This document shows positions 4,082 through 19,107 of a stretch of DNA of 64,000 nt, one piece after another (the stretch's first letter is position 1; every line of letters starts with the position of its first letter). The stretch comes from Gammaproteobacteria bacterium 39-13. GTDB lineage: Bacteria; Pseudomonadota; Gammaproteobacteria; Berkiellales; Berkiellaceae. Made by a program: the position numbers and the translations under genes. Under the pieces are notes generated by a model. That model was not told where the DNA came from, did not search any database, and worked only from the letters and a program-made list of their open reading frames with translations. Location of the stretch: positions 18,035-82,034 of the forward strand of contig MKTN01000027.1 of the NCBI GenBank assembly GCA_001898235.1, in the 5' to 3' direction.

Positions 4082-6067
4082 ATGGAGCAAGGTCCACAAC
4101 AATCTTCAATCGAAGATCTAGACAAAAAATTGAGGGGCATGACAATTGAAGAGAGATCACGAGGAGCTGGCAATAAAGCAGATGATCCAATACATATGTC
4201 CTTTGATAATATTCACGATGCCACAGCTATCCAAGCTTCAACAAGAAGATTATGTGAAAAATTTATAATTCCGTCAAATATGACTGTAGAAGCAATACAA
4301 GAAATCTTAGATAAATTAGATGAGCAGTATCAAGAAAATTTCAAAGCTTTTAGAAGCACTATCAGCCCAATTAACGTCAAAAAAATTGCTGGCTTTCAAA
4401 AATTACAGAGTGTAATCCAGCATTCACCTCTATTAACTTATATCAAGCATGTTATGGGACTGTTAAACCATCTCCATTTTCACACAACGGTAGTTTTATC
4501 ATTTGAGCAAGGAAACCAAATCACCTCCAATATCCTCAATTTATTTGCTGATTGGATAGAACTCCTCGAAATACATAACCTCGCCCCTTGCGATCTTCAC
4601 AAAATCATGCTCGCTTACATCTTAAACAAAGGTAATCTAAATGCCGCTTTGTACATCCATGAGGGTGTCACACATTTTAACATCTGGAATGAATTAACAG
4701 ATAGCACTTCTGGCGAAGCTGAACATCATCACAATAAAGCAAGATTCTATTTTGAAAAGGCATTGGAAATAGCCCACTTAAATCAACAAAACTTGAATGA
4801 TTTCAATTCGCATTATGATAGAAATCCTATAGATGAAATAAATATCCTCATTCCATTTATATATGCTCAATCATTTTCTGGTCATTTAAAATTAGCCAGA
4901 GAAAATGTAGAGAAAATCTATTATCTTATGGTAATTCATCCTTGGTGTTACATCCTTGCTTTGGTTGCTTTTGACTTTTACGCAAGACGGCTAATGATGT
5001 ATTCTCCCACTTCTTATCATGAAATAATTGAGATGATGGAGAGAAATATTGCACTCAGTAAAAAAACCATTATTGGTCCACCAGATTTTGATCATGGCAG
5101 ATATACTCAAATTCAAGAAGAAGACTTTATTGTTTTATCTGATGGTTACCAGACAGAAATTGCAGATTGGGGTAAACCCTATCACCTTGTAAAAAAATCC
5201 GCTAGCACCAGCGAAATTATCTATACTCTGCCTTCTGCAGATTTTAATAATCAAATAAAAAGACTGCTACCCAAGATTCTTCGAGATTTACCGTCCAAGC
5301 AAGTATCTATTTCAGTAAAGGCAAGAGAGCTTTTCATTTCATTTCCATTAGACATTCCTCTTGCTGTAATAAAGCAGGCCGTTGAAAAAATAGGTGAAAT
5401 ATTTTTAAATCCCGAACCTACACTTAAATCATCAGAAACGGTTATTTGTCAAGATATTGTACCTACCAATCCAACTTGTTCTCAAGGAACAGATGGGTTC
5501 AAGTCATCTCTTGAAGCTACTCCTGTGACAAAGGACATAGGACAAAATGACAATGAAAAAGAGAAGGAAACTAAAGAGAAGAAGGAAAAAGGAAAAAGAG
5601 TGAGAAAGGGAACGCAAAGAAATAATAATAAAAGTTCTTCTGCGACAACTTCCACAAATCATTCCATACCTAGGTTACAAGCAATCTTAGAAACAAACTC
5701 ACCCACTGCACCGTTTAAAAAGCAAGAATTTGAACATGCAACAATATGTGAACTTCAAGGTGCCAAAGGTATTTTTGTTGCTTATAATCCTCAATCTACT
5801 TTTGTTCAACCCAAAAAGCTCGATAAAAAAATCGAAACTCGCTACAGAAACATGTTCCGTTATCCTCATCTTGCGAGCTCCACCAATTGCAATGGCTTTA
5901 AATGGATATCTAATAATATGGGCGCATGTCTTATTGGCAAATTAACCCGCGAAAGTTATAGATTGTTTCCTCTTGAAATAGAAATTAATGATGTTGGCGA
6001 AACAGCATTTTTCTATGGTGAAATCAGAAATAGTAAAAAGGGGAAAAAAGCAAATCGATATGGATAA
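4082..6067 (+). CDS. paralog A of a ~660-690-aa family (helical N-terminal region, K/E-rich NLS-like tract, conserved C-terminal module)
   Basis: I moved the start from 4049 to ATG 4082 (MEQGPQQ...) because paralogs B and C start the same way and GAGGA lies 9 nt upstream. The sequence aligns by eye with 6343, 8654 and 17089 along its whole length. Confidence 0.85.
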   Translation: MEQGPQQSSIEDLDKKLRGMTIEERSRGAGNKADDPIHMSFDNIHDATAIQASTRRLCEKFIIPSNMTVEAIQEILDKLDEQYQENFKAFRSTISPINVKKIAGFQKLQSVIQHSPLLTYIKHVMGLLNHLHFHTTVVLSFEQGNQITSNILNLFADWIELLEIHNLAPCDLHKIMLAYILNKGNLNAALYIHEGVTHFNIWNELTDSTSGEAEHHHNKARFYFEKALEIAHLNQQNLNDFNSHYDRNPIDEINILIPFIYAQSFSGHLKLARENVEKIYYLMVIHPWCYILALVAFDFYARRLMMYSPTSYHEIIEMMERNIALSKKTIIGPPDFDHGRYTQIQEEDFIVLSDGYQTEIADWGKPYHLVKKSASTSEIIYTLPSADFNNQIKRLLPKILRDLPSKQVSISVKARELFISFPLDIPLAVIKQAVEKIGEIFLNPEPTLKSSETVICQDIVPTNPTCSQGTDGFKSSLEATPVTKDIGQNDNEKEKETKEKKEKGKRVRKGTQRNNNKSSSATTSTNHSIPRLQAILETNSPTAPFKKQEFEHATICELQGAKGIFVAYNPQSTFVQPKKLDKKIETRYRNMFRYPHLASSTNCNGFKWISNNMGACLIGKLTRESYRLFPLEIEINDVGETAFFYGEIRNSKKGKKANRYG

Positions 6068-6102
6068 ATGCCGTATCATTTAAAAATAACGAAGCATTTG
6101 AG

Positions 6103-6141
6103 GATTCAGGAGGCAGATCTGCCTTCTGAATCTTTTCTTTC
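6103..6141 (+). terminator. rho-independent terminator after paralog A
   Basis: A 15-bp stem GATTCAGGAGGCAGA/TCTGCCTTCTGAATC (one G-U pair) is followed by TTTTCTTT. Confidence 0.6.
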
Positions 6142-6248
6142 CCGCCTTTTTCGAAGAAAGTGAAAGAAACTACTATTTTTCAAAGAACACAATAGCATCC
6201 TTAATTCAATGCTTAAACGTATAAAAAAACCGACGCTCGTCGTTTTCT

Positions 6249-16830: not shown

Positions 16831-16993
16831 TCTTTTCTACCTTATAGGTTGATGGAACAAGACAGCAATATCATAAGAAAGTGACAGGTTTTGTATTTTT
16901 AAAATTTGATAAAAGCACCATACCCACTCTTGCACCAACCCCCACCAAAAATTCTCATCATATCAGCATTTATGCAGTTTTCTCTTTAGATTT

Positions 16994-17053
16994 TGTGGGG
17001 AAATAACCTGAGTGATTTATCACATTTACTTAACTTATTTATTATGATGTAAT
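16994..17053 (+). promoter_or_regulatory. diverged Box1 (TGTGGGGAAATAACCTGAGTGATTTA, 16994-17019) plus extended -10 (TGATGTAAT, 17045-17053)
   Basis: The geometry matches the other copies. The -10 ends 36 nt before ATG 17089. Confidence 0.4.
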
Positions 17054-17088
17054 ACGTTGCTCAGATAACAAATGAAGGCTTTATAACT

Positions 17089-19107
17089 ATGCTCTCGGGT
17101 GACTTACAGGCTTCCTCTTCAGAACATGCTGATTATCTTTTATCACGTCTTGCTGAACTCCAGCTTGAAGAAAACAACCAAGCTTTATTAAATATCACCA
17201 ATGAAGAAAGTGTTTACTATAGTCACAATGCAATATCTGAGGCAAAACTGGTCTCCCGTAGGATAAAAACACTATGTTCAATCTTTATGTCAGCGCTTGC
17301 AAATCCAGACTTATCAAATAAAATTAGTGCAAGTAGTATTGCGCCTTTAATAAAACAAATTGATGAAGAATTTGAAACTCATTTTGAAAAACTCAAACAA
17401 AAAATCGCACCGCCATCTTCAAAAAGAAAAATTGCCCAGTTTCAGCAAAAGCAAAAAAATATCGAGGATTCAGAACTTCTCGCCTATGTCAAAGATGTTG
17501 TTTGGCTATTAAATTACGTTGACAATAAAATTACGTTACTATTGAATCACCAACAGTGTATCGAAATTTCAAATGCGATTTCGACTTTATTTAATGAATG
17601 GCTCCATGAATTGGAAGTTCACGAACTAGTACCATCAACGCTCCATGAATTCATTTTAACTTATACCACTCAAGTGGGAAATTTAATTGCTGAACGTTGC
17701 ATAAATTGTGCTTTACAAGAACTCCGAACAACGAATAATCAAGCTGTTGCCCAGGAATATTTTAAAAAAGTCCTATTCCTAGCACATATGAACGAACAGA
17801 ACGTCAATGAGCTTTCATCCTACTATGCGAAAGATCGCGAAATGGAAAAAGTCTGTGTTGCAATGAATTTTGTGTGGGCACAATCCTTTTTAGGTCATTA
17901 TCATCAAGCAAGAGAAAACGTTGAAAAAATTGCAAGTTCATTAGATAAACTTTCATTTATCATCCCCGGAAGCACGAATGTCTTTGTTTTTTACGCAGAT
18001 CGCTGTGCTTTAAAAGTAAATCCAAATCTTCATGAAGTATTGCACTGGTACACCAAAGTGACTCAGTTGTATGATAATAAAGAAGCTCTGGCGACACCTT
18101 TGCATCCTCTTTCACATAAAGAAAAAACATTAGCAAAGCTAATGCCTAAAATTGAGCGAAATTTTCAAAAATATTTATCAGAAATTCGGAAAATTGCAAC
18201 CCCTTACCATTTGCAAGTAGGTGAATGCACATCAAGTCAACTTGTTTTTATTCTTCCTGAAAATATTTCTCAAAAAAGCTTTAAATCAGCCACCAGAAAT
18301 TTATTTAGCAGTTTAAAAACCAAACAAATTGATGCCTCTATGACCAAAAAAGGATTCAAAATAGCATTTGATTATCACGTTCCTTTTTATACAATAAAAA
18401 AAGCGATTGAAAGAATTGGAACGATAGTTTTAAGACTAGATCAATCCTTAAAATTACCTATTGTTCCCCAAAGCGCTATCCCTACTGTAGCCGCTGAAAA
18501 TCTTGATGATTCATCTGTCGAAGAAATGGCGAAATTACAAGTTGAAGACACAGCAGATGTGTCTGCTGCAAGCACAACATGTGCTGAAATACCTCAAGGT
18601 TCAACCTCAGCAAGATCACCAACATCCTCTACAGCAGAAAATGTCGTGAACGTTTCTATTAACGATGAAACAAAATCTACAGCCGCAACTGACACTTATA
18701 GCGCTTCAACTTCGCAACCAATGACAATTTCACCAACAATCAAATTGAAAAATCTTTTTCAACACGTACTATTCCAAGATGCACTAATAAAGGAATTAAA
18801 TGGTGCAAAAGGAATTTTTGTTGCCTATTCTCCTCGCTCCTCATTTAAACAACCTAAAAAGCTAGACGCAAAGGTAGAACAAAGATTCATCGAAATGTTT
18901 GATGTTCCATGCAAGGCAAGCGCTCAAAATTGTAATGGATTTAAATGGATGTCGACAGCAAACGGTCCTTCCTTAGTAGGAAAATTAAGCCGTCAATCAT
19001 TCCGATTATTCCCTGTACATAAAGAAATCAGCCCAAGTGGGGAAACTGCTTTCTTTTATGGAGAAATCAAAAATTCTAAAAAAGGGAAAAAAAGTAATAG
19101 ATATTAA
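17089..19107 (+). CDS. paralog D of the family (lacks the K/E-rich tract; has a Ser/Thr/Ala-rich acidic linker instead)
   Basis: 672 aa. It shares the ARENVEKI, PYHLQ and FILPENI blocks and the C-terminal ELNGAKGIFVAYSP...NCNGFKW...GETAFFYGEIKNSKKGKKSNRY. Confidence 0.85.
   Translation: MLSGDLQASSSEHADYLLSRLAELQLEENNQALLNITNEESVYYSHNAISEAKLVSRRIKTLCSIFMSALANPDLSNKISASSIAPLIKQIDEEFETHFEKLKQKIAPPSSKRKIAQFQQKQKNIEDSELLAYVKDVVWLLNYVDNKITLLLNHQQCIEISNAISTLFNEWLHELEVHELVPSTLHEFILTYTTQVGNLIAERCINCALQELRTTNNQAVAQEYFKKVLFLAHMNEQNVNELSSYYAKDREMEKVCVAMNFVWAQSFLGHYHQARENVEKIASSLDKLSFIIPGSTNVFVFYADRCALKVNPNLHEVLHWYTKVTQLYDNKEALATPLHPLSHKEKTLAKLMPKIERNFQKYLSEIRKIATPYHLQVGECTSSQLVFILPENISQKSFKSATRNLFSSLKTKQIDASMTKKGFKIAFDYHVPFYTIKKAIERIGTIVLRLDQSLKLPIVPQSAIPTVAAENLDDSSVEEMAKLQVEDTADVSAASTTCAEIPQGSTSARSPTSSTAENVVNVSINDETKSTAATDTYSASTSQPMTISPTIKLKNLFQHVLFQDALIKELNGAKGIFVAYSPRSSFKQPKKLDAKVEQRFIEMFDVPCKASAQNCNGFKWMSTANGPSLVGKLSRQSFRLFPVHKEISPSGETAFFYGEIKNSKKGKKSNRY

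Follow-up and report, generated by a model that had tools for sequence, protein, structure and literature searches.

A paralogous protein family of the Berkiella clade with a conserved basic C-terminal domain: candidate adaptor effectors

We analyzed a window of 64,000 nucleotides on contig MKTN01000027.1 of the metagenome-assembled genome (MAG) Gammaproteobacteria bacterium 39-13, and found that four large proteins encoded there belong to a gene family without a described relative. The proteins combine a variable helical N-terminal part with a strongly conserved, basic C-terminal domain. We tentatively read the family as soluble, modular adaptor effectors that are specific to the Berkiella clade and would be delivered into a protist host, and give this reading a probability of roughly 45%. 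The original prediction, made from the letters of this window, had placed the four genes at the center of an undescribed system. No sign of a multi-component system was seen: the copies are separate units of one gene family, and the finding is a family, not a multi-gene system.

The four genes lie on the forward strand at 4082..6067 (paralog 1, 661 aa), 6343..8388 (paralog 2, 681 aa), 8654..10729 (paralog 3, 691 aa) and 17089..19107 (paralog 4, 672 aa). They had been proposed to be full-length paralogs, and the open reading frames (ORFs) at these coordinates indeed aligned end to end. BLASTP between pairs of the four ORFs gave 28-44% identity over 673-700 aligned columns with E-values of 1e-80 to 0, and the four-way MAFFT alignment contained ~110 invariant columns. 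Paralogy was also detected in the DNA, as a 185-nt block at the 3' end with 65-77% identity in all four copies; because of this residual similarity over the last 185 nt, we consider that the copies were born by duplication. The blocks QHSPLL.YIK.V.GLLNHL, IDEINIL.PF, ARENVEKIY, GKPY[HR] and EIIY.LPSA.F, quoted as shared by all, were found in copies 1-3, but were degenerate in copy 4, the most divergent copy of the window. The C-terminal module was conserved in all four, as proposed. For paralog 1, the ATG at 4082 was favored as the start over the TTG at 4049 because of an AGAGGA ribosome-binding site and an N-terminus of the form M-x-x-G-P/D common to the copies. Neither a signal peptide, whose absence had been predicted for all copies, nor a conserved transmembrane or hydrophobic segment was found in any of the four.

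The family was larger than the four members first counted. A family hidden Markov model detected no copy beyond the four in the window, and the MAG as a whole carries at least seven intact, full-length members and one remnant of 76 aa (OJV91664.1). Copy 6 (L010 7940-9940, 33% identical to copy 1) and copy 5 (L010 10001-12016, OJV92029.1) form a full-length tandem pair on the same contig as the window, ~15 kb upstream of its start. Copy 7 (L017 6291-8384, OJV96513.1, 696 aa) lies on another contig of this MAG, 50 kb long, and was the single extra locus recovered by the metagenome scan. Proteins identical to those of the window were present on metagenome or MAG contigs of ~143 kb from ENA, JGI, Logan and NCBI (GCA_017306795.1).

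Outside this genome the family was rare. When 1.84 billion cluster representatives were searched exhaustively with HMMER, only 25 proteins were retrieved at E <= 1e-3. Every named relative was a "hypothetical protein" from Candidatus Berkiella aquae, from Ca. Berkiella sp. MAGs or from the 39-13 MAG, so that the named relatives were confined to the Berkiella clade; the remaining ones came from Logan or JGI assemblies. Ca. Berkiella aquae has two family genes (WP_075066003.1 and WP_075064757.1). The relatives beyond the paralogs and their strain variants were ~590-670 aa long and shared the C-terminal domain strongly, and some of them the N-terminal region more weakly. The EF-G encoded in the window shared 88% identity with its counterpart in Ca. 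Berkiella aquae, 80% with that in B. cookevillensis and 77% with that in a Legionellales MAG; we therefore place the source organism, which is uncultured, in the clade of the amoeba parasite Berkiella. A tblastn search of plasmids gave no family match, and a literature search found no paper mentioning the accessions of family members.

Scans of Pfam, NCBIfam and PHROG, together with profile and sequence searches of the PDB, gave no match for the family. The claim that it has no recognizable catalytic domain thus held in a wider sense: no domain of any kind was recognized in the libraries scanned. No similarity to Legionella or Coxiella effectors was detected by sequence or fold in Pfam, NCBIfam and PDB. 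Modules of the PH, PX, FYVE, P4M and P4C types had no Pfam match and were absent among the Foldseek hits in PDB at E < 3. The sole PADLOC match, of 13.6 bits, was at chance level, and by the PADLOC and PHROG scans the family belongs neither to anti-phage defense nor to phage protein families.

The AlphaFold2 model of paralog 1 showed four regions. Residues ~35-367 formed an all-alpha solenoid with a predicted local distance difference test score (pLDDT) of 80-94, residues 368-443 a small beta-beta-alpha-beta-beta-alpha module, and residues ~444-545 a disordered linker rich in K/E and K. A beta-rich C-terminal domain followed (~546-652) and ended in a basic tail; this part was poorly modeled in the full-length run. 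Foldseek against the PDB, run on this model, returned for the solenoid generic solenoids only (LGN/Pins, 14-3-3 and eIF3a; E 4e-3 to 6e-2, template modeling (TM) score <= 0.5). The TPR domains of LGN/Pins were the best hits, weak ones with E 4e-3 to 5e-2, TM 0.26-0.36 and a root mean square deviation (rmsd) of 14-20 A.

Of the proposed TPR/Sel1-like helical repeat, the helical-repeat nature of the N-terminal two-thirds was reproduced by the model, but the TPR/Sel1 label was not. At E <= 0.1 neither a TPR nor a Sel1 match was obtained with Pfam for any paralog or for 10 distant members, and we rejected membership in these families for lack of a profile match. We also considered a PCI domain, in which a solenoid is joined to a winged helix, and rejected it: eIF3a appeared with no better than E 0.018 and TM 0.28, and the topology of the beta-alpha module is not that of a winged helix. 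The N-terminal 330 residues resemble TPR-type alpha-solenoid scaffolds (LGN/Pins, 14-3-3 and PCI proteins such as eIF3a) in their stacked helical hairpins, which are predicted with high confidence, but the family differs from these in having no Pfam match to TPR, Sel1 or PCI and in the module that follows the solenoid.

The C-terminal domain, of ~110 residues, is encoded at 5717..6067 in paralog 1 and at ~8038-8388, 10367-10729 and 18757-19107 in paralogs 2-4. When the C-terminal 127 residues (window 5684-6064) were modeled with a family alignment of 19 sequences, the pLDDT was 89.7 and the predicted TM score 0.82. The predicted fold consists of a beta hairpin, one helix and a four-stranded meander (beta-beta-alpha-beta-beta-beta-beta). 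Foldseek of this model against the PDB gave nothing better than E 0.15 and TM 0.27. OB proteins (OBody, SSB, Rim1, RPA and the LysRS N-domain) appeared in the list as weak hits (E 0.8-3, TM 0.2-0.3); the predicted strand order differs from the OB order. The top hit in BFVD, which was not significant, was an uncharacterized 131-aa protein of Yasminevirus (A0A5K0U817; E 0.2, probability 0.82, TM 0.43). Judged against PDB and BFVD, the domain may provisionally be regarded as a new fold. Yasminevirus is a giant virus of amoebae, an ecological setting shared with the bacteria carrying the family.

Constraint was mapped on an alignment of 17 members with copy-1 residue numbering. All family-wide invariants fell inside the C-terminal domain (G605-F606-K607-W608, G619-K620, R627-L628-x-P630, N636, G639, K652 and G654), and the first ~450 positions had no invariant polar residue. 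The isoelectric point of the domain is 9.5-10. In the model K607 stands at the start of beta3, K620 at the end of beta4, R627 at the start of beta5 and K652 after beta6; because of this strand order the four residues would come together at the same end of the meander, which suggests a conserved basic pocket flanked by aromatics. K and R abound in the last 12 residues (NSKKGKKANRYG), and those just before them belong to a folded beta strand.

Compared with the sister strain L009, the window genes had an overall ratio of nonsynonymous to synonymous substitution rates (dN/dS) of ~0.25. By region, it was lowest in the C-terminal domain (0.08-0.17) and higher in the solenoid (0.23-0.55) and the linker (0.24-0.41); identity between paralogs in these regions was 58%, 33% and 21%, respectively. 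We conclude from these values that the genes are functional, and that they combine a C-terminal module that stays constant with an N-terminal scaffold that diversifies. Selection between the strains was purifying, with no arms-race signal at that scale. The 3' part of paralog 1 (5200-6067, compared with L009 6540-7397) had a synonymous divergence (dS) of 0.25-0.9, against 0.07 in the 5' two-thirds of the gene, and this contrast points to a mosaic made by recombination or gene conversion.

Copies 1-3 and the members P0006, P0010, P0014, P0018, P0022, P0024 and P0027 have linkers with dense K/R clusters resembling a nuclear localization signal (NLS); the cluster of P0006 (696 aa) includes OJV96513.1, the seventh paralog. 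The strongest lysine cluster was that of paralog 2, KEKEKKKKVETKKKGKRSKK; the linker of paralog 3 is K/R-rich, and that of paralog 4 has no basic cluster.

A promoter-like element of two boxes precedes each paralog of the window on the same strand. For paralog 1 it spans 3986..4048, with box 1 (TGTAGCGAAAATACCTGAG) at 3986-4004 and an extended -10-like box 2 (TGTTTTAAT) at 4040-4048. The elements of paralogs 2, 3 and 4 lie at 6249..6310 (boxes at 6249-6267 and 6302-6310), 8558..8619 (8558-8576 and 8611-8619) and 16994..17053 (16994-17012 and 17045-17053). Box 1, TGTAGCGAAAAnACCTGA(G), starts 94-96 nt before the ATG and was matched five times in the window where 0.07 matches were expected. Box 2, TGnTyTAAT, is similar to an extended -10, and its first base lies 51-54 nt downstream of that of box 1. 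Box 1 might be either an activator site centered near -60 or part of the -35/spacer region. The fifth match belongs to the same element (TGTAGCGAAAAGACCTGAA ... TGTTTAAAT), with box 2 at the same spacing, on the forward strand at 24486..24548, upstream of a gene unrelated to the paralogs (24588-27704) that codes for a 1038-aa protein with PDZ and trypsin-like peptidase domains, which suggests that the paralogs and this protease gene form a small co-regulated set. It also precedes copy 6 (L010 7833) and copy 7 (L017 6200) and is conserved in the sister strain; it was absent from the B. aquae locus. A scan with the sigma-70 consensus did not single out this conserved element. PmrA-type boxes (two copies of TTAATATT) upstream of the paralogs were rejected, the matches being degenerate, AT-rich and inconsistent in position.

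As read from these signals, the copies in the window are separate putative transcription units interspersed with unrelated genes. On the forward strand, a terminator-like 16-bp hairpin followed by a U-run lies after paralog 1 (6100..6143), and a GC-rich, terminator-like hairpin with a weaker U tract after paralog 2 (8396..8428). Copies 6 and 5 are separated by 60 bp and are probably co-transcribed.

The genes stand in an effector-like island: GC content was ~35% at 2-26 kb of the window, stepped sharply at ~26000-28000, and was 43-46% beyond, where uvrA, ribosomal-protein and rpoBC genes lie. We favor secreted, host-directed proteins because of this low-GC island, the eukaryote-like neighbors, the expansion with divergence, the restriction to an obligate-intracellular clade with reported dot/icm genes, and the lack of a housekeeping homolog. 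The dot/icm genes were reported in both cultured Berkiella genomes (PMC9803151), and an association with the host nucleus has been described for these cultured species, the nearest ones in culture (PMC9803151, PMC6507137). The original prediction of host-targeted effectors was partly supported: local expansion with divergence, the low-GC island, the eukaryote-like genes and the relatives with reported dot/icm genes fit it, but dN/dS between strains, ~0.25, gave no sign of an arms race.

An adaptor model is preferred because the scaffold lacks conserved polar residues and the C-terminal domain concentrates the invariant Lys and Arg. In this model the route into the protist host would presumably be the Dot/Icm type IVB system, which has been reported for Berkiella, and inside the host the proteins would act as adaptors, not enzymes. 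The basic C-terminal beta domain (K607, K620, R627 and K652, near F606 and W608) would bind one constant anionic ligand, for which a phosphoinositide head group, nucleic acid or chromatin, and possibly a component of the secretion machinery are candidates. The N-terminal solenoid, ~33% identical between copies, may bind a different host protein in each paralog. If the lysine-rich linker of copies 1-3 and several distant members works as an NLS, some copies would be directed to the nucleus of the host, in keeping with the nucleus-associated lifestyle described for the cultured Berkiella. Transcribed individually from the shared two-box promoter, the family would be switched on together with the PDZ/trypsin-like protease. 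We infer secretion, ligand binding, nuclear targeting and co-regulation alike from the features described above.

Several points weigh against this model. No dot/icm genes were found in the window or in the examined flanks of the MAG. Dot/Icm signals known from Legionella are Glu-rich or small-polar, and the basic extreme C-terminus of the family (NSKKGKKANRYG) is unlike them; by eye, its K/R-rich tail did not fit a C-terminal Dot/Icm signal of ~20-35 aa with small polar residues or an E-block. The K/R cluster of the linker is missing in copies 4-6 and in some distant members, and the NLS-likeness was scored by simple patterns only. The clustering of the basic residues was deduced from the topology and not from coordinates. 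The C-terminal domain may also be catalytic, since RelE-type RNases likewise use only Lys, Arg and Tyr.

The main rival to adaptor effectors makes the C-terminal domain with its basic tail a secretion module for a type IV coupling complex, the N-terminal part alone being host-acting. Type IV signals are C-terminal, and in all full-length members retrieved the domain stands at the extreme C-terminus with a short K/R-rich tail behind it; it is also the region most conserved between paralogs and under the strongest purifying selection. Loci of the Bartonella Bep effectors follow the same plan: paralogs in tandem whose C-terminal domain is constant and whose N-terminal region varies. The family resembles the Beps in its neighboring paralogs, the conserved C-terminal domain of ~100 aa, the short basic tail and the variable N-terminal part. 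The Beps, however, depend on a type IVA system (VirB/D4) and contain FIC or phosphotyrosine motifs, and nothing ties this genome to a VirB/D4-type system. The BID domain of the Beps is all-helical, the family domain is beta-rich, and no homology between them was detected. Known Dot/Icm signals, moreover, are short, unstructured and acidic or polar. On balance we regard a delivery module as unlikely, and both a toxin and a non-secreted role as less likely.

The least probable of the three rivals, to which we give little credit, is that the C-terminal domain is a toxin or enzyme, such as an RNase of the barnase-EndoU-colicin-RelE (BECR) group or a phosphate-handling enzyme, targeted or regulated by the solenoid. 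The invariant Lys, Lys, Arg, Lys and Asn with a semi-conserved C-terminal Tyr recall RelE, the order of motifs (aromatic-K ... YRLfP ... hydrophobic strand-K..Y) resembles RelE/HigB by eye, and HigB2 appeared twice in the Foldseek list. These HigB2 hits, however, were not significant (E about 1-2, TM 0.2, rmsd 11 A), and hhalign against a hand-typed alignment of RelE, YoeB, YafQ, HigB and ParE gave a probability of 0.15%. On these two results a RelE/HigB-type RNase of the BECR fold was rejected. Pfam showed no toxin family for the domain even at E <= 10, no small immunity or antitoxin ORF lies beside any copy, and it would be unusual for seven toxin copies to be expressed with no partner. A polymorphic toxin system was rejected since the polarity is reversed, with a conserved C-terminus and a variable N-terminus, and no small downstream ORF is shared. 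It is likewise improbable, in our judgment, that the proteins stay in the bacterium as lineage-specific cytoplasmic regulators or nucleic-acid-binding scaffolds that became multi-copy by chance. In favor of this reading, secretion is a prediction, the C-terminus is not typical of a Dot/Icm substrate, nucleic acid of the bacterium itself could be what the basic beta domain binds, and the dedicated promoter is common to the paralogs and the protease gene. Against this stand seven diverged copies of 35% GC in islands of eukaryote-like genes, linkers with eukaryote-type K-rich clusters, and the absence of the family from other bacteria among the 1.84 billion representatives; housekeeping functions are rarely so restricted or expanded.

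Adaptor effectors would have their nearest likeness in the orphan Dot/Icm effector clusters of Legionellales, for example the tandem sidE/sdeA-C of Legionella pneumophila. The family shares with these that its proteins are large and soluble without a signal peptide, duplicated in tandem and diverged, restricted to a lineage, and encoded in low-GC islands with F-box, ANK, kinase and Lgt-type glucosyltransferase genes. It differs in having no similarity of sequence or fold to Legionella or Coxiella effectors in Pfam, NCBIfam or PDB, no catalytic domain and a basic C-terminus, and its secretion is presumed. Bacterial nucleomodulins such as Legionella RomA and AnkH and Coxiella NopA contain recognizable domains (SET, ANK and RCC1). 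The family is like them in being proteins of an intracellular bacterium with eukaryote-type K/R clusters, but its nuclear targeting is a pattern-based guess that applies to some copies only.

Association with the host nucleus, or entry into it, has been reported for few bacteria, Berkiella and its relatives among them, and the mechanism is barely known. With seven copies in one genome and purifying selection, this clade-specific family offers a concrete experimental candidate: its C-terminal domain is confidently predicted and had no match in either PDB or BFVD, some copies have a lysine-rich linker, and a promoter element is shared. A bolder reading, which we hold to be improbable, is that the C-terminal domain has a new fold and function of nucleus-associated Berkiella, either as a nuclear anchor acting with the NLS-like linker or as a structured type IV delivery domain. 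If true, a C-terminal chromatin or nucleic-acid anchor together with the NLS-like linker would put diversified scaffolds in the host nucleus, and the two-box promoter would mark out a regulon dedicated to the infection stage. Effector families that are confined to one lineage and have no known function are very frequent among Legionellales. An orphan effector-like family is a familiar kind in Legionellales-related bacteria, and the present one is an incremental addition, not a surprise.

The neighbors of the paralogs had been described as eukaryote-like, and this applied to an F-box and ANK protein with significant Pfam hits (19224-20465), a J-domain protein (14784-15809), a eukaryote-like protein with a Ser/Thr protein-kinase domain (32758-34113) and a eukaryote-like choline/APH (aminoglycoside-type) kinase (22460-23458), both kinases lying in or near the island. 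The F-box assignment of the protein at 10860-12296 was less secure, its score of 21.7 bits being just under the Pfam cut-off of 24.3. The two F-box proteins, 10860-12296 and 19224-20465, flank the family. Gene neighborhoods of the relatives contained Ank, Fic, RasGEF, Lgt-type glycosyltransferase and caspase-like genes, and the distant members specifically adjoin Ank, Fic and RasGEF genes. The genes flanking copies 6 and 5 are two of the Lgt type (Glyco_transf_88) and one for a caspase-like Peptidase_C14.

One member in a Logan assembly (L014) was split into overlapping ORFs, 9306-10037 with the N-terminal 244 aa and 9995-11212 with the C-terminal 406 aa, and is a frameshifted pseudogene or an assembly error. 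In the window, neither a tRNA nor an obvious mobile-element boundary was found. A housekeeping-type norB-like gene with Pfam NorB cytochrome c-like and COX1 domains (12428-14719), probably coding for nitric oxide reductase, lies inside the island between the tandem trio and copy 4.

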